From: a bacterium
Lineage (GTDB): Bacteria > UBA8248
Direction of reading: 5' to 3'
Assembly (NCBI GenBank): GCA_965199855.1
Contig: OZ241326.1
Coordinates: forward strand, 2,112,001 to 2,176,000
Length of the DNA: 64,000 bases
Part shown: piece after piece, positions 28,900 through 35,336 of the stretch
Numbering within the stretch: the stretch's first letter is position 1
Layout: every line of letters begins with the position of its first letter
The notes under the pieces: generated by a model
Databases searched by the model: none
Seen by the model: only the letters and a program-made list of their open reading frames with translations
Told to the model about the DNA's origin: nothing
Program-made: the position numbers and the translations under genes

Positions 28900-28995
28900 A
28901 GGGCCGGCGGGACGCCCGCGCCGCCGCAGGGCGCCGTGGTTCGCCGCAGGGGGCGACTTCTCCTCGGCGGCGCGACGGCGCCGGACGTCCCGAAA

Positions 28996-29175
28996 CGGGC
29001 GCTTCGCGAACCGCCCCTGCGGAATCAAAAAAAAACCATCCCCCGCCGTCATTCCGGCGAAGGCCGGAATCCGGGGTTTTCGGCCCAGGGGAGAGGGACG
29101 GCGGAATCCGCGGCGCGCGCCCCTGTGGTTGTCCTTCACCGCATCCTCGTCCCCGCCGACGCGCGAACGTTCCCG
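28996..29175. repeat. Mixed REP-like cluster (GTAG-type and CGTC-type hairpins)
   Basis: GGGCGCTTCGCGAACCGCCCCTGC; CGTCATTCCGGCGAAGGCCGGAATCC (29047-29072); CCTGTGGTTGTCCTTC...CCCGCCGACGCGCGAAC. Confidence 0.6.
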
Positions 29176-29202
29176 GCGCGCCGGGGGCGGAACCCGCGCG
29201 CG

Positions 29203-29231
29203 TTGCCATCGCCCTCCCGATTTCGTATGAT
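29203..29231 (+). promoter_or_regulatory. Sigma-70 promoter of small gene copy 1
   Basis: TTGCCA-N17-TATGAT; CCCGATTTCGTATGAT identical upstream of the paralog (34394-34422). Confidence 0.65.
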
Positions 29232-29282
29232 GCGCGGAATCACCCGGCGTGAATGCGCGAACCGGGAGCGGGGAGAGGCGCG

Positions 29283-29740
29283 ATGACGGAGTTTGAACTG
29301 GCGACGGCGGCTTTCCAGAACGCGACGATTGAATTTCAGAACGCGACCCTCGAGTTTCAGAACGCGGCCCTTGAATTTCAGAAATGGGGGGTCGAGTTTC
29401 AGAAGTGGGGGGTGGCGGCGCAGTGGGTCGTCGGTCTTCTTCAGGTCGCCCTGATCGCCTACGGCCTTCGCCTCATGGAGCGCGGCGGCGCGCGGCGCTC
29501 TCCGAGCGTCAGCACGACGAGACGATGGCCGCCCTCGCCGCGGAGCAGGCGGCCTCGGAAAAGCGACACGAAGAGACGATGGCCGCTCTCGCCGAGGAGC
29601 GGGCGGCTTCCCAGAAGCGGCACGAGGAGGCCATGGACGAATCGGAGAAACGGCACGAGGAAGCCATGCGGAAGCACGACGAGTCGATGACCGCCCTCAC
29701 GGAGCTCATCAGGCGGACGGGGAGCGGGGAGAGTCCCTGA
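29283..29740 (+). pseudogene. Frameshifted paralog of 34492-34896 (heptad repeats, TM, His-containing coiled-coil)
   Basis: MTEFELATAAFQNATIEFQ... in one frame; the homologous C-terminus ...[19 protein letters not shown] is in another frame, switching at about 29490-29500. Confidence 0.7.
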
Positions 29741-29817
29741 GCGGGACGCGCCCGCGATTCTCCCGAACCGGCCCCTTTCGACCGGGCGCGAAAACGGAAA
29801 ATATGATATGATGCCGG

Positions 29818-30055
29818 CGCAGACCGCAGACCGCAGACCGCAGACCGCAGACCGCAGACCGCAGACCGCAGACCGCAGACCGCAGACCGCAGACCGCAGA
29901 CCGCAGACCGCAGACCGCAGACCGCAGACCGCAGACCGCAGACCGCAGACCGCAGACCGCAGACCGCAGACCGCAGACCGCAGACCGCAGACCGCAGACC
30001 GCAGACCGCAGACCGCAGACCGCAGACCGCAGACCGCAGACCGCAGACCGCAGAC
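29818..30055. repeat. Perfect heptanucleotide microsatellite (CGCAGAC)34
   Basis: 238 bp of uninterrupted CGCAGAC units. Confidence 0.97.
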
Positions 30056-30079
30056 GTAGGGGCGGTTCGGGAACCGCCC
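30056..30079 (+). repeat. GTAG-type REP-like hairpin abutting the microsatellite
   Basis: GTAGGGGCGGTTCGGGAACCGCCC. Confidence 0.7.
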
Positions 30080-30189
30080 GCGCTCTCTTCGGCGGCGTGG
30101 GCGGCTCGTGAGCCTCCCCCGCGAAACCGCAAGGCCCGCCCCCGCGGCCCGTCATCCATCGGGAACGGCCCGCGAGCGCGTCCGCGTCC

Positions 30190-30219
30190 TTGACGGGCGC
30201 ATTCCGCTATCTATATGCT
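30190..30219 (+). promoter_or_regulatory. Putative sigma-70 promoter of the autotransporter
   Basis: TTGACG-N18-TATGCT (or N16-TATATG), about 135 bp before ATG 30355. Confidence 0.45.
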
Positions 30220-30354
30220 TTTCCGTCCGTTGTCCGCCCTCAGGCGGGCGGCGCGAGCAGCGGCGCCGCCCGGATGGAGAGTCATTCGCGCCCCGCGGAG
30301 CGGAGGCGCCCCGGACAAACCCTTCAGCCCGAACTCACGGGAGAACATGACATT

Positions 30355-33300
30355 ATGCTCACGAATCGCCATCACCGTTTTCCGGCTTCCGCCGCCGCGC
30401 GCGCCCTGGGACTGGCGCTGGCCGCCGCGCTCCTCCTCGGCGCGGGAGAAGCGGCGGCGCAGACCCCGCTGTGTCCCACGGCCGGCCATGAGACGACCGC
30501 CGTCTTTCCCCCCGGAACCAACCTTCAGAACCTGACCCGGGATCAACTGAAGACGATTTATCGCTCCTTCCCGAACCTGGTGATTCCCTCCGCGAGAATC
30601 GAGTGCAGGTACGGGGTGGCGGACAACAAACACCACTCTTTCCTCGTCCGCAGCCCCAAAATCACCGTCGCGGACGACTGGGTGACCGGAATCTACGCCC
30701 TGCACGAGAGCAGGGGGACTCTGGAGGTCTATATTCACGCCGTGGGCCCGACCGGCGAGGCGCAGCACTTCCACCCGATCGACTACGGCAACATGGCCGT
30801 CAGAACGGGGGGCGTGGCGGCCGACTACACGACGGGCGAAGAATCCCACGCCATCCACGTCGAGCACACGGGCGAAGGCGGGGTCGGCCTCGATTTCCGG
30901 AATCTCTCGCTGTTCACGCAGGGCGACTACGCCTATGGCGTTTACGTCAAGCAGCAGGGCTCCTACGTCTTCAGGCACGGGGCGAGCCGGCGCGCCAGGG
31001 GCGAGATCGTGGTCAGGATCATCGAGACCGACCGCGATCGCGAGGGGCGGGCGCGCCCGCTGATAGCGACGCGGGGCGACTGGGCCGACGCCGTCCGCGC
31101 CGAATTCTCCCGCGGCGCGGCGCAGGGCGACGTCACCGTCGCCATCAAGGGCTACACCATCGCGACGGGCGGCATCGTCCCCCAGCAGGAGCATCCCGAG
31201 ACCTACCCCCCCCCCACGGGACAGGCGGCCCGCGCCGTATTCGCCCTGCACCAGGGCTACGGCGACATCCGCGTCTCCGCGACAGACGCCCAAATCCTCA
31301 CGTGGGGCAATCAGGCCTCGGCCATTTTCGGCCATCATGAGGGCAGGACGAGAACGATCATGAACGTGGGGGGCGGCTCCGAGGTCATCCCGGGCGGAGG
31401 CGTCATCTCCCTCACCGTGAGCGGCGGCGAGATCAGGACGATGGGCTTCATCAGCTCCGAGGAAGGAGCCGAGGAGACGCTGCAAGGGATCGGCGTGAAT
31501 TTCCGGGCGACAGGCGGCTCCAACTCCCATGGCGTCTATGGCTGGCACCAGGGAGACGGGCCCATCGACATCAACCTGACGAACGCCTCCGTCTCCACGA
31601 CGGGCGCGGGCGTCTTTGGCCACCACAAGGGCGGCGACGGCGCAATCGACATCAACCTGGCGAACGCCTCCGTCTCCACGACGGAGGAGAACGCCTACGC
31701 CTACGGCGTCCTGGCCTGGCGGGAGCACGGCGGCGAGGGCGATGTCTCCGTCTCCGTCGCGGGCGGCTCGATTTCCACCGCCACGGAGAGCTCCCACGCC
31801 GTCTGGGGCCGGCAGGAAGGCGCGAAGGGCGGCGTCTCCATCACCGCGGCGAACGCCGCCCTCTCCACGGCGGGCAAGGCGGCCCACGGCGTAATCGGCG
31901 TCATCCAGGGCAAAGCCGCCGTGGATGACGGGGAAGGCGGGACGACGCTCGCGCGGAGCGGCGAGGGGGTATTCGCGGGCGAGGGCGACATCGCCGTCTC
32001 CGTCGCGGGCGGCTCGATTTCCACCGCGGGCGAGCTGGCCCACGGCGTCCATGCCGACCATCACGGCGACGAGGGGGAGATCGCCGTCACGATAGCGGAC
32101 GGCGCCTCCATCGCCACCGCGGGCGAGAACGCCTACGGCGTCTATGCCCGGCACATCCACAAGGGCGCGGTCGCCGTCGCCTTGACGGGGAGCGTCGGGA
32201 CGGCCGGCGACTACGCCTACGGCGCTCGCCTCTATCACTCGGGCGTCTCGGGCGATATGTCCTTCCGCATGACGGGCGGCGAAATCAGGACGACGGGCGC
32301 GGGCGCCCACGGCGTCAGCGTCGAGCATCACGGCGACGCGGGCGCGGTCGCCGTCACGATAGCGGGAGGCGAGGTCTCCGCCGCGGGCGAGAACGCCTAC
32401 GGCGTCTGGATGAAAACGGCGGGAGGCGCGACGCTCACGATCGGGCGGGGGGCGCGCGTGAGCGCGACCCAGTCGGGCCTGGCCGCTTTCGCCGACGGCC
32501 GGGGCGACTTCGCCGCGATGATTCACGGAACGATGGAAGGCGGCGTCGTCAGCTACGCGAGCGGGGAGAATACGGTCACGGTGGGCCCCTCGGGCGCCAT
32601 CAAGGGGATTATTGACGGGGTGGCGATTCACGCGGAAGGCGGCGGGCTCCACGTTGATTTGAGCCTGACCGATTCGAGCCTGAACGCCCGCGGGGTGGCC
32701 GACGTTCTGGGCGGCGACATCGTGACCGCGGCGCCGGAGGAAACCACCGTCATCGTCAACGGCGTGACGGTGTTCGACGGGGTGAACGGCGTCGTCGACG
32801 TCGACGTGCCGAACGGGCCGTTCGACGTCCGCATGTCCGCCGCCCAGAGCGGGCGCCTCACCCTGACCGAGCGCTACGCCCCGCGCGCGAGCGTCTATGA
32901 GGCGCTTCCGGGCCTCCTGCTCCGGCTGAGCGGCGCGAGAGCGCGGGGCGAGAGGAAGACCTCGCCCGGCTCCCCGGTCTGGGCGAGCGTCTGGCGCGGG
33001 GAGGGCTCCCGCGGCGACGGGGGTTCGACCGTCGGCGCCTCCCATGACTTCGAGCATTCCGGAGCGGAGGCCGGCCTCTACCTGGCCTTTCCCCGGTCCG
33101 GCGGCCTGAGCGGCTCCGTCTCGGTTCGCCAGTCGAAGGCGCGGGCGGACGTCTCCATGCCCTCGGGCAAGGGCGATATCGAGCTGGAAGGCGCGGGCGC
33201 GGGCCTCGGCCTCTCCTGGAGGAACCGGAGCGGCTGGTATCTGAGCGGAAATTATTCCTTCATGGAATACGACGCCGACCTCGCCTCGGAGCCCCGGGGC

Positions 33301-33771
33301 AAGCTCAAGAGCGGCGCGGACGCGACGGTCCGCGCCGTGGGACTCGAGGCGGGCAGGCACCTCGCCCTGAGCGAGCGATTCGCCCTCATCCCCCGCGTCT
33401 GGGCGGCGCGGGCGAGCGCCTCCATCAAGGGCTTCACGGATTCCGTCGGGGCGCGCTTCAGCCTCATCGAGGGCGACAGGCTCACGGGCGGCGCGGGCGT
33501 CGCCGCCGAGACGGAAGTCGCCCGCCGCGGCTGGACGCTCTCCCTCCGCGGGGCGCTGGACGTCGAAAGCGCACTGAGCGGCGAGAAGACGACCGTAGAC
33601 GTCTCCGGCCACCGGCTCCACGCGGAAAGCGAGGACACCCGGATTCTGATGGGACTGGACGCCCTCTATCGGGAGGGGCCCCTCTCGCTCGGGCTGGCGC
33701 TGCGCGCGGACGGCCTGGGCACGGACGACGAGGCCTACGGCGGCCGCCTGAGCCTGGGGCTTCGGTTCTAG
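30355..33771 (+). CDS. Type Va autotransporter (beta-helical repeat passenger, C-terminal beta-barrel)
   Basis: Signal peptide ending AAA-Q; repeated ISTAGE.AHGV/AYGV units; YAPRA.VYEALP linker; amphipathic barrel ending LSLGLRF. Confidence 0.88.
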   Translation: MLTNRHHRFPASAAARALGLALAAALLLGAGEAAAQTPLCPTAGHETTAVFPPGTNLQNLTRDQLKTIYRSFPNLVIPSARIECRYGVADNKHHSFLVRSPKITVADDWVTGIYALHESRGTLEVYIHAVGPTGEAQHFHPIDYGNMAVRTGGVAADYTTGEESHAIHVEHTGEGGVGLDFRNLSLFTQGDYAYGVYVKQQGSYVFRHGASRRARGEIVVRIIETDRDREGRARPLIATRGDWADAVRAEFSRGAAQGDVTVAIKGYTIATGGIVPQQEHPETYPPPTGQAARAVFALHQGYGDIRVSATDAQILTWGNQASAIFGHHEGRTRTIMNVGGGSEVIPGGGVISLTVSGGEIRTMGFISSEEGAEETLQGIGVNFRATGGSNSHGVYGWHQGDGPIDINLTNASVSTTGAGVFGHHKGGDGAIDINLANASVSTTEENAYAYGVLAWREHGGEGDVSVSVAGGSISTATESSHAVWGRQEGAKGGVSITAANAALSTAGKAAHGVIGVIQGKAAVDDGEGGTTLARSGEGVFAGEGDIAVSVAGGSISTAGELAHGVHADHHGDEGEIAVTIADGASIATAGENAYGVYARHIHKGAVAVALTGSVGTAGDYAYGARLYHSGVSGDMSFRMTGGEIRTTGAGAHGVSVEHHGDAGAVAVTIAGGEVSAAGENAYGVWMKTAGGATLTIGRGARVSATQSGLAAFADGRGDFAAMIHGTMEGGVVSYASGENTVTVGPSGAIKGIIDGVAIHAEGGGLHVDLSLTDSSLNARGVADVLGGDIVTAAPEETTVIVNGVTVFDGVNGVVDVDVPNGPFDVRMSAAQSGRLTLTERYAPRASVYEALPGLLLRLSGARARGERKTSPGSPVWASVWRGEGSRGDGGSTVGASHDFEHSGAEAGLYLAFPRSGGLSGSVSVRQSKARADVSMPSGKGDIELEGAGAGLGLSWRNRSGWYLSGNYSFMEYDADLASEPRGKLKSGADATVRAVGLEAGRHLALSERFALIPRVWAARASASIKGFTDSVGARFSLIEGDRLTGGAGVAAETEVARRGWTLSLRGALDVESALSGEKTTVDVSGHRLHAESEDTRILMGLDALYREGPLSLGLALRADGLGTDDEAYGGRLSLGLRF

Positions 33772-33802
33772 GCGCGCGCGGCGAAGCCTCGACCGCGCTC
33801 AC

Positions 33803-33843
33803 CGGGCGCGGGGGCCGGTTCGATGGCCCCCGCGCCCGTTTTT
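33803..33843 (+). terminator. Intrinsic terminator of the autotransporter
   Basis: 14-bp stem CGGGCGCGGGGGCC/GGCCCCCGCGCCCG followed by a T run. Confidence 0.8.
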
Positions 33844-33874
33844 CGTTTCTCGCCGAACGGATCGGTTGGTTTCG

Positions 33875-34045
33875 TGAACCGGCCCGCCCGCGTCAACGGG
33901 AACGGCGCGGGACGCATATATGCTGTCCCCTACAAAGGAAAAATCGCCGCCCTCGCCCGTAGGGGGCGCATTCATGCGCCCCGTTTGCGGGTCGGCGATG
34001 ACGCGGATCAAATCGTAGGAACAACCCCTGTGGTTGCCCGCGCTG
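33875..34045. repeat. Cluster of GTAG/CTAC REP-like hairpins
   Basis: GACGCATATATGC..CCCCTAC; GTAGGGGGCGCATTCATGCGCCCC; GTAGGAACAACCCCTGTGGTTG. Confidence 0.65.
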
Positions 34046-34061
34046 GGTTCCTTCCTCCTCG

Positions 34062-34311
34062 CCGAGGCGCGAAAATCCCGTAGGGGGCGTTCGGGAACGC
34101 CCCGCCGCCTCCGATGCGAATCCCTCCCCGCAACGGGCGGTTCACGAACCGCCCCTACGAAACCGTCGCCGCCCGCCGAAGATGCGGCCATCCCTCCAGG
34201 TGGGGACAACCACAGGGGGTTGTCCCTACGGCCTCCCTTGAGGGTCGCCGTCCCGCAACGGACGCTTCACGAATTGCGGGGAGACCCCGGGGAGGGGCCG
34301 CCCCTACGAAA
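34062..34311 (+). repeat. 250-bp direct repeat, copy A (composite of REP-like hairpins)
   Basis: Matches 34926-35175 with 6 substitutions by manual alignment. Confidence 0.93.
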
Positions 34312-34393
34312 TCGTAAAACCCGCATTCCCCGCCGATCGTCGGCGAGCGCATATATGCGCGTCCCGCTTGGCGTCTTTCATCCGCCCGAGGCA

Positions 34394-34422
34394 TTGCCGC
34401 GACGCCCCCGATTTCGTATGAT
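34394..34422 (+). promoter_or_regulatory. Sigma-70 promoter of small gene copy 2
   Basis: TTGCCG-N17-TATGAT, conserved with 29203-29231. Confidence 0.65.
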
Positions 34423-34437
34423 GAAATGGAATGGACG

Positions 34438-34469
34438 GCGTGAATGCGTGAATGCGTGAATGCGTGAAT
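34438..34469. repeat. Tandem octamer (GCGTGAAT)4 in the 5' UTR
   Basis: Four exact copies; the paralog has one exact and one degenerate copy. Confidence 0.85.
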
Positions 34470-34491
34470 CGGGAGCGAGGCGAGGAGACGG

Positions 34492-34896
34492 ATGATGACG
34501 GAGTTCGAGCTGGCGACGGCGGCTTTTCAGAACGCGACGATCGGGTTTCAGAACGCAACGCTCGAATTGCAGAACGCGACGATCCAATTTCAGAAGTGGG
34601 ATCTGATAGCGCAGTGGGTCATCGGGCTGGGGCAAATCGCCCTGATCGGCGGCGGTCTCGTGATGATGCAATTTGCCGGCCGGCGTCGGGACCGCGCGCT
34701 CGACCAGATGATGGACGAATCGCAGAGGCGGCACGATGAGGCCATGGAAGCCCTGAAGCGCCGGCACGACGAGGCGATGGCCGAATCGGAGAAGCGGCAC
34801 GTGGAGACGATGGAAGCCTTGAAGCGCCAGCACGAGGAGACGATGACCGCGCTCATGGAGCTCATCAAGCGGACGGGGAGCGGAGAGAAAACCTGA
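34492..34896 (+). CDS. Small membrane protein of unknown family: heptad FQNAT repeats, TM, 11-residue RH(D/E)E(A/T)M repeats
   Basis: GAGGAG RBS, own promoter, paralog at 29283. Confidence 0.8.
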   Translation: MMTEFELATAAFQNATIGFQNATLELQNATIQFQKWDLIAQWVIGLGQIALIGGGLVMMQFAGRRRDRALDQMMDESQRRHDEAMEALKRRHDEAMAESEKRHVETMEALKRQHEETMTALMELIKRTGSGEKT

Positions 34897-34925
34897 GCGG
34901 CCGCGCCTCCCTTGTTCACCTCTCA

Positions 34926-35175
34926 CCGAGGCGCGAAAATCCCGTAGGGGGCGTTCGGGAACGCCCCGCCGCCTCCGATGCGAATCCCTCCCCGCAACGT
35001 GCGGTTCACGAACCGCCCCTACGAAACCGTCGCCGCCCGCCGAAGATGCGGCCATCCCTCCAGGTGGGGACAACCACAGGGGGTTGTCCCTACGGCCTCC
35101 CTTGGGGGTCGCCGTCCCGCAACGGGCGGTTCACGAATTGCGGGGCGGCCCCGGGGAGGGGCCGCCCCTACGAAA
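34926..35175 (+). repeat. 250-bp direct repeat, copy B
   Basis: Matches 34062-34311. Confidence 0.93.
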
Positions 35176-35336
35176 ACCTCCACCCCTCCCCAATCGACGG
35201 GCGGGACGCATATATGCGTCCCCTACAAAATCAAAATCGCGCGGCATCTGCCCCTACATTGACGCCCCGCGCGGGACGCGCCCGTCCCCGGGAAATCGCG
35301 CCCCGATATTTTTTCGTCCGAATCCCCCGCCCCCGC

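Follow-up and report, generated by a model that had tools for sequence, protein, structure and literature searches.

It was found that two genes lying on either side of an autotransporter gene in a bacterial genome belong to an unnamed, multi-copy family of small proteins. The genes lie in a 64,000-nucleotide (nt) stretch of contig OZ241326.1 (assembly GCA_965199855.1, GTDB lineage UBA8248, positions 2,112,001 to 2,176,000 of the forward strand), which is called the window here and to which coordinates refer unless they are given as genome positions. Both genes probably encode single-pass inner-membrane proteins that consist of one helix, have their length tuned by repeat units, and assemble with themselves. 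The upstream gene (copy 1) is frameshifted and the downstream gene (copy 2) is intact. The host genome (3.04 Mb in one contig, 67.3% G+C) holds eight copies of the family, of which six are intact, one is frameshifted, and one has its membrane part deleted. Thus, the initial annotation, which was made from the letters of the window, was right in placing two copies around the autotransporter gene, but the pair is not unique to this locus. The features of the two copies are the following.

29203..29231, + strand: promoter-like site of copy 1, TTGCCA-17-TATGAT (promoter scan, 10/12 consensus matches)
29283..29500, + strand: N-terminal part of copy 1, from the MTEFE start through five 21-nt (heptad) units and the membrane helix to ERGGARR
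29313..29417, + strand: the five 21-nt units that make up the heptads of copy 1
29474..29740, + strand: C-terminal part of copy 1 in a shifted frame, His/Met repeats to the stop codon
29485..29498, + strand: (GCGGCGC)x2 tract in copy 1 (alignment with paralogs)
34394..34422, + strand: promoter-like site of copy 2, TTGCCG-17-TATGAT (promoter scan)
34438..34469, + strand: (GCGTGAAT)x4, a perfect tandem repeat in the 5′ leader of copy 2 (Tandem Repeats Finder, paralog alignment)
34495..34896, + strand: copy 2, an intact gene of 133 residues plus stop (P0001)
34525..34595, + strand: 21-nt heptad repeats of copy 2 (period 21, 3.4 copies, 82% matches)
34701..34849, + strand: 33/66-nt repeats of copy 2, which are the 11-residue His/Met units (period 33, 3.5 copies; period 66, 2.3 copies)

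The protein anatomy was deduced from an alignment of 58 members (A4), to which the member counts below refer. Residues M1, T2, G54, M58, R65, L120, L123, I124, R126, and T127 are near-invariant, and G44 and Q47 are kept in most members. The conserved blocks are the MTEFE start, a G-x2-Q-x6-G-x3-M seam in the membrane helix, a basic patch after this helix, and a C-terminal AL-x2-LI-x-RT; the ends shared by the two window copies, which start with MTEFELATAAFQNAT and finish with TAL.ELI.RTGSGE, are as first described. Members have 65-195 amino acid residues, of which 11-85 precede the membrane Gly and 35-153 follow it. In a manual count, the number of residues before the membrane Gly was 1 mod 7 in 46 of the 58 members, 4 mod 7 in 11, and another value in only one. 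The aligned members are related to each other, yet their N-terminal tail lengths cover 15 to 85. Since the tail changes in 7-residue steps, the heptad phase between the start motif and the membrane seam is preserved. In 55/58 members, the 15 residues past the membrane helix are richer in Lys/Arg than the entire N-terminal tail. Thus, by the positive-inside rule, the N-terminus would lie outside and the C-terminus in the cytoplasm. Each family protein is predicted to be essentially one long alpha-helix that would run from M-T-E-F-E through variable periplasmic heptads, the membrane helix, the cytoplasmic basic patch, and the repeats to AL-x2-LI-x-RT. The cytoplasmic repeats would be units of 7, 11, or 18 residues that vary in number and mostly carry H-x-E-x-M, and the length on either side of the membrane may change by gain or loss of whole repeat units.

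The repeats of variable number that had been noticed on both sides of one membrane helix were confirmed. The 21-nt N-terminal heptad repeat occurs five times in copy 1 (FQNAT twice, FQNAA, and FQKWG twice in the protein) and four times in copy 2; Tandem Repeats Finder reported a period of 21 with 3.2 copies and 85% matches at 29316-29383 of copy 1. On the C-terminal side, the His residues are spaced by 11, 11, and 11 residues in copy 2 and by 18, 18, 11, and 7 residues in copy 1, as annotated, and the DNA periods are 33/66 nt and 54 nt, respectively (the latter at 29513-29636, Tandem Repeats Finder). P0004 and P0007 are otherwise identical proteins, the sole difference being one 11-residue unit. 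The annotated promoters, TTGCC(A/G)-N17-TATGAT, were also recovered at both copies by the scan, which found four sites in 29000-35200 (6.2 kb) against 0.3 +/- 0.5 in shuffled sequences. The -35/-10 block of the copy 1 site is kept among six aligned paralogs. The (GCGTGAAT)x4 repeat sits between the -10 box and the ribosome-binding site of copy 2, and about 1.5 units are present in other paralogs.

Are the FQNAT heptads modified? DQNAT is the acceptor sequence of Campylobacter PglB, and FQNAT resembles it. N-A-T occurs three times in copy 2 and twice in copy 1, and the homologous FRNAS and FQNAS heptads keep the sequon. The repeats could be tandem N-glycosylation sequons on a periplasmic tail, served by a PglB-type oligosaccharyltransferase. 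However, no STT3/PglB (PF02516) match was found in the genome, which is rated 100% complete. In addition, 44 of the 58 members lack N-x-S/T in the N-terminal tail, and no acidic residue stands at position -2. FQNAT is rather a local variant, since the heptads of other species read LEISRAG, ASLALQQ, or ATLDVQQ. Glycosylation is thus extremely improbable, and the N-A-T repeats were rejected as glycosylation sites.

The eight copies in the host genome include copy 1 and the following.

Intact long copies (four): copy 2 of the window, and genome positions 2693757, 479135, and 960541
Short tandem copies (two): genome positions 1688525 and 1688923
Truncated copy: genome positions 2991244-2991417 (locus L008, 1486-1659, - strand)

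In the truncated copy, the promoter and the start codon are retained, whereas the region from the second codon to a His repeat is deleted in frame. Its product is a 57-residue soluble His/Met-repeat protein without the membrane helix. A close relative has an intact 141-residue version (P0004), encoded on a contig of 3,033,334 nt. A search of the whole genome with the DNA unit using nhmmer returned only the known copies and no extra fragments.

The family genes are under purifying selection. The ratio of nonsynonymous to synonymous substitution rates (dN/dS) is 0.14-0.51 in all ten pairwise comparisons of paralogs, and 0.14-0.33 when the N-terminal part of copy 1 is compared with its paralogs. 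The neutral dN/dS that the initial annotation had named as speaking against its own proposal was therefore not seen. The repeat indels between paralogs are whole units of 21, 33, or 63 nt, except for a 7-nt loss in copy 1. It might still be argued that the family genes have no function and are repeats in decay or open frames that arose by chance in GC-rich DNA, given that two of the eight copies are broken and several relatives are frameshifted. This explanation is scarcely credible, in view of the dN/dS values, the tail lengths in 7-residue steps, the conservation of the membrane seam and both termini in members 31-62% identical to copy 2, and the recurrence of copies between the same kinds of flanking genes in other species.

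Copy 1 (29283-29740) is split over two frames. The N-terminal and membrane part lies in the frame of 29283, while the His-repeat part lies in the frame of 29474. Thus, copy 1 is not the single reading frame that had been annotated, and the protein assigned to it requires read-through of the frameshift. Alignment with three paralogs revealed that copy 1 is exactly 7 nt short, lacking one unit of (GCGGCGC)3. Three units are present in the intact paralogs c0960, c2693, and c0479, and two are left at 29485-29498. The frame of copy 1 is shifted, and copy 1 is off, because this one 7-nt unit is missing. The short in-gene (GCGGCGC)n tract may therefore shift the frame in the manner of a contingency gene: the repeat lies within the gene, its unit is not divisible by three, and its count sets the frame in copy 1 and the paralogs. 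The autotransporter Lav of Haemophilus influenzae is described as a contingency gene switched by a GCAA(n) tract (PMC9022572). The frame of copy 1 is likewise set by a repeat, with two units being off and three units being on in the three intact paralogs. Unlike a Lav-type switch, the tract of copy 1 has only 2-3 units, so that slippage should be rare, and the paralogs confound the contig evidence of variation.

Does the tract vary among samples? Near-identical DNA was found in 16 public runs from six studies, some of which are labelled as sponge or marine metagenomes. Reads and contigs were compared across samples in the copy 1 region (29100-29815). In run X3, copy-1-type contigs are gapless over the tract with two units (the shorter side of the site has 14 nt in record 20 and 15 nt in record 21). 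In run X12, a 214-nt contig (29310-29516) with one other letter has an extra GCGGCGC, making three units, and carries the A at 29333 that separates copy 1 from two paralogs. Tentatively, both 2-unit and 3-unit forms of the copy 1 locus seem to exist across samples. Against this, the contigs are short unitigs from a genome with near-identical paralogs, and no X3 record spans 31 nt on both sides of the tract. For the tail of P0012, from another sample, the frame of a fourth unit fits 20-24 of 35 residues, compared with 8-11 of 15-35 for other counts, although a 1-nt insertion would give the same frame.

Structure models were consistent with a self-assembling helix. With the 58-sequence alignment, AlphaFold2 predicted copy 2 to be one helix from residue 3 to 131, with a mean predicted local distance difference test (pLDDT) value of 86.4 and a predicted template modelling score (pTM) of 0.44. 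A model of four copies reached a score of 0.73 (0.74, 0.73, and 0.73 in the individual runs), while the best of three controls scored 0.00. The runs agreed in at least 94% of the contacts, and the partner pLDDT was at least 87. From residue 4 to 128, the modelled chains touch in parallel and in register, residue i facing residue i or a neighbour within a helical turn. The predicted interface includes F11, F18, and L25 with A/T in the heptads; G44, Q47, I51, G54, and M58 in the membrane; and H80/91/102/113, M84/95/106/117, and L87/S98/L109/L120 in the cytoplasmic part. The Met-Leu-His layers are spaced 3-4-4 per 11-residue unit, and interface residues recur every 3-4 positions. Together with the 7-residue steps of the N-terminal tails, the models indicate a periodic hydrophobic seam along a continuous helix, which supports the heptad/hendecad coiled-coil oligomer proposed by the initial annotation. 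The helices would most likely form a membrane-crossing bundle in which they lie parallel and in register, and the core of the cytoplasmic stalk may be formed by Met, Leu, and His layers.

Several points weigh against this interpretation. The helix, its topology, and the oligomer are predictions, and structure models tend to pack amphipathic helices side by side. The pass mark of the complex score was reached by 20 of 30 one-chain-pair proteins and by 1 of 23 single-chain proteins, but this calibration is only approximate here, as the family's own alignment was used and four copies were folded instead of two; moreover, four was the sole chain number modelled. The genes are read from DNA, and none of the 16 matching public runs is on record as RNA. 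Broken alleles occur often (copy 1, the truncated family copy at genome positions 2991244-2991417, P0008, P0012, and P0018), and frameshifts or truncations of this frequency could mean that the constraint on individual copies is weak. The G+C content at third codon positions is about 0.84-0.85 in the family genes and 0.88-0.98 in neighbour genes. Finally, the H-x3-M motif, which occurs 1-10 times per protein in 52 of the 58 members, is absent in the other six, where a C-terminal unit of the AL-x2-LI-K-RT type is repeated instead. Thus, binding of a metal ion or pH sensing cannot be the shared function of the whole family.

What may the His/Met layers do? As a guess, and a doubtful one, the stacked layers may bind a metal ion or sense pH. 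SilE and PcoE are periplasmic and have the motifs HxxM and MxxH. The family shares with them and with Metal_resist proteins (PF13801, CpxP/Spy/ZraP-like) periodic His/Met on one helix face in an acidic helical context. Unlike in SilE and PcoE, the motif is H-x3-M, is predicted to be cytoplasmic, and is lacking in 6/58 members. The family is not a member of PF13801 either: this was the best Pfam match of copy 2, but it was weak (15.9 bits, E = 0.014, below the gathering cut-off of 29.2 bits), and neither part of copy 1 matched PF13801. A more elaborate proposal is a membrane-spanning coiled-coil "ladder". Parallel four-helix bundles with a His4/Met4 layer every 11 residues and an intramembrane Gln ring would bind a metal ion, protons, or a cofactor, or conduct one of these across or along the inner membrane, with the layer number and the length of the periplasmic stalk tuned by gain and loss of repeats and with copies switched by the 7-nt repeat, in autotransporter cassettes of small-genome, sponge-associated lineages. 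This proposal as a whole has a low probability.

By analogy, the closest known kinds seem to be small single-pass parallel coiled-coil proteins and repeat-switched contingency genes. In BM2 of influenza B and in phospholamban, both small single-pass proteins, the membrane helix continues into a parallel coiled-coil bundle. They share with the family a size of about 100 residues and one membrane helix. The family is likewise modelled as a parallel, in-register homo-oligomer that continues from the membrane into a soluble coiled coil, and it likewise has conserved small and polar residues along the membrane seam. In contrast to BM2 and phospholamban, the family is bacterial and many-copy, has coiled coils on both sides of the membrane, varies in length by repeat units, and lacks sequence or profile similarity to any solved chain.

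The modelled bundle with conserved Gly and Gln on the membrane seam also invites the idea of a small pore-forming or membrane-perturbing protein resembling a viroporin, a holin, or a type I toxin. The copies, both dispersed and in tandem, are units of about 550-600 nt that each carry a promoter, which fits this idea, and there are weak leads, namely a BhlA-holin cluster at rank 6 of the ESM atlas search (score 0.79) and, in PHROGs, an Rz-like spanin (E = 0.03) and a holin (E = 0.07). However, all these leads are below significance, the proteins of 65-195 residues have large soluble coiled-coil parts, no PADLOC family was found at the default threshold, and no conserved partner gene adjoins the copies. 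A pore or toxin of this kind is thus quite unlikely. Type I toxins are usually under 60 residues and come with an antisense RNA gene. In the family, the member lengths are greater, and the promoter scan found no site on the opposite strand of 29000-35200. These points speak against a type I toxin-antitoxin unit. The long direct repeats (Ldr) of E. coli encode Ldr peptides, which are type I toxins. The family resembles them in its dispersed and tandem units, which span several hundred bases and consist of a promoter, a leader, and the gene of a small membrane protein. Unlike Ldr peptides, which they exceed 2-5 times in length, the family products are for the most part soluble coiled coil, and no antisense promoter was found within 29000-35200.

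The single-helix, self-assembling membrane protein proposed above could not be assigned to a characterised family, in agreement with the initial annotation. Pfam and NCBIfam gave nothing at the curated cut-offs for either part of copy 1 or for copy 2. The best match in PHROGs was a tape-measure coiled coil (E = 4.1e-4, not significant), and the best in PADLOC had E = 0.0023. No sequence of the Protein Data Bank (PDB) matched the family profile at E <= 1, and the best ESM atlas score was 0.81, below the guide value of 0.9. A search of Rfam with 28900-35300 gave no match.

The profile search that the initial annotation had proposed was extended from the host genome, with its eight copies, to public proteins. 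Among 1.84 billion representative proteins, 771 clusters matched at E <= 1e-3 and 354 at E <= 1e-10. The lengths are 79-268 residues among the 150 best clusters listed. None of the ten representative clusters looked up has a name. When 8,000 candidates of 343-2000 residues were scored, no fused or longer form appeared at E <= 1e-5, which is weak evidence for the absence of such forms. Within the genus, the profile matched 21 of 22 other genomes; it matched none of 19 genomes from eight other genera of the family and neither of two from other families of the order. The genomes have 1-33 matches each, often in tandem arrays; matches per genome do not equal copy numbers. Judging from these sequence searches, the family appears to be lineage-restricted, multi-copy, and unnamed. 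A narrower alignment retrieved eight related loci. The records behind loci L044-L051 are titled Alphaproteobacteria, Candidatus Binatia, Gammaproteobacteria, and Defluviicoccus, so the labels for the lineage are inconsistent.

How have the copies spread? The homology among paralogs extends from about 85-115 nt 5′ of the ATG to about 10-20 nt 3′ of the stop codon. Thus, the duplicated unit comprises the promoter, the leader, and the gene. This agrees with one half of the claim that the copies move as promoter-plus-gene units. The other half, mobility, is not supported, as no transposase or mobility genes and no terminal repeats were found at the family copies. In other species, the copies recur between Iso_dh and a TPP (thiamine pyrophosphate) enzyme (four loci), YncE and FGE-sulfatase (four loci), and an aminotransferase and MaoC (three loci). 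The same kinds of housekeeping flanks at several loci fit ordinary inheritance and not mobility. Short GC-rich hairpin repeats headed by GTAG, which resemble repetitive extragenic palindromic (REP) sequences, flank the family units (e.g., 34935-34968 and 30056-30085). These repeats are common to several loci, with 90-98% identity over 30-60 nt.

Between the two copies of the window lie the autotransporter gene and its leader, with the following features.

29778..29807, + strand: second promoter-like site, TCGACC-18-TATGAT, just 5′ of the 7-nt repeat tract (promoter scan)
29818..30055, + strand: (CGCAGAC)x34, a perfect tandem repeat in the leader of the autotransporter gene, outside the family genes
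30190..33771, + strand: autotransporter gene (PF03797, E = 8.4e-20)
33803..33838, + strand: terminator-like hairpin and T-run 3′ of the autotransporter gene (15 pairs, 14 of them G-C)

The autotransporter start is likely the signal-peptide-like MLTNRHH... internal to the 30190..33771 frame.

The proximity of family genes and autotransporters was found to be real in some genomes. The host genome has 17 autotransporter beta-domains or frames. Four of its eight family copies lie less than 1 kb from an autotransporter frame, always on the same strand, a value reached in 1 of 20,000 random placements; one further copy, the fifth, precedes another autotransporter by 2.8 kb. For three related genomes (G044-G046), the frame extents were approximated from match tables. 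In G045, four of six family loci are within 1.5 kb of an autotransporter, all upstream and on the same strand (0/20,000 random placements). In G044, two of 11 loci are near autotransporters (1,202/20,000), and in G046 none of eight is, despite its 23 autotransporters. At locus L044 of G044 (about 2074600-2086200), the order on one strand is autotransporter-family-autotransporter-family, the same layout as the family-autotransporter-family order of the window. In G016, G021, and G022, no listed family match lies less than 4 kb from an autotransporter match, with coordinates compared by eye and the family list being incomplete. Thus, the link is present in three genomes and absent from four others checked. 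None of 28 loci in other genomes of the genus has an autotransporter domain within about 1.5 kb on each side, the neighbours being housekeeping enzymes. The link was rejected as a rule for the whole family on the counts of 0/8 in G046 and 0/28 at the other loci of the genus.

These placements bear on the idea that the family is an accessory or expression module of neighbouring autotransporter genes, serving as a promoter or a membrane partner within a contingency cassette. The host genome and G045 speak for such a module, and G044 does so less clearly. On the other side, G046, the 28 other loci of the genus, and the listed matches of G016, G021, and G022 offer no such neighbour, and each family copy has its own promoter-like site. 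The separate site at 29778-29807 and the terminator-like hairpin at 33803-33838 suggest that the family genes and the autotransporter gene are separate transcription units. The module is therefore an unlikely explanation, and membership in a self-assembling membrane protein family remains the preferred one for the two window genes.

The leaders of the autotransporter genes were newly noted to carry long repeat tracts, as was the adjacency of family genes and autotransporters in some genomes. A total of 14 exact tandem repeats (units of 4-12 nt, five or more copies) was found in the host genome. Thirteen of them have a 7- or 8-nt unit in 12-58 copies, and for 12 of the 17 autotransporter frames, such tracts are found at the 5′ end or shortly before it. 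Examples of the other tracts are at genome positions 310217-310432, 1185893-1186164, 1186579-1186984, 2194250-2194537, and 2441703-2441990. Three of the five 8-nt tracts with a signal-peptide-like start downstream end 5-18 nt before this start. The 7-nt tract of the window ends about 300 nt before the autotransporter start and lies within a short frame (29808-30059) after the promoter-like site. The 7/8-nt tracts look like repeat-controlled leaders of surface-protein genes.

In summary, a large protein family, comprising 771 representative clusters and reaching about 30 matches in a single genome, is named in none of the databases searched. Its anatomy is unusually regular, with one membrane-crossing helix and, on each side, a length in whole repeat units that keeps the register. 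The family thus lends itself to testing how a membrane protein is affected by the length of its coiled coil and by His/Met layers in the core. Variable surface-related loci are best known from pathogens. The link to autotransporters and the tracts in their leaders suggest such loci in a symbiont. With near-identical DNA in sponge and marine metagenome runs, the family may mark the genome plasticity of an uncultured lineage.

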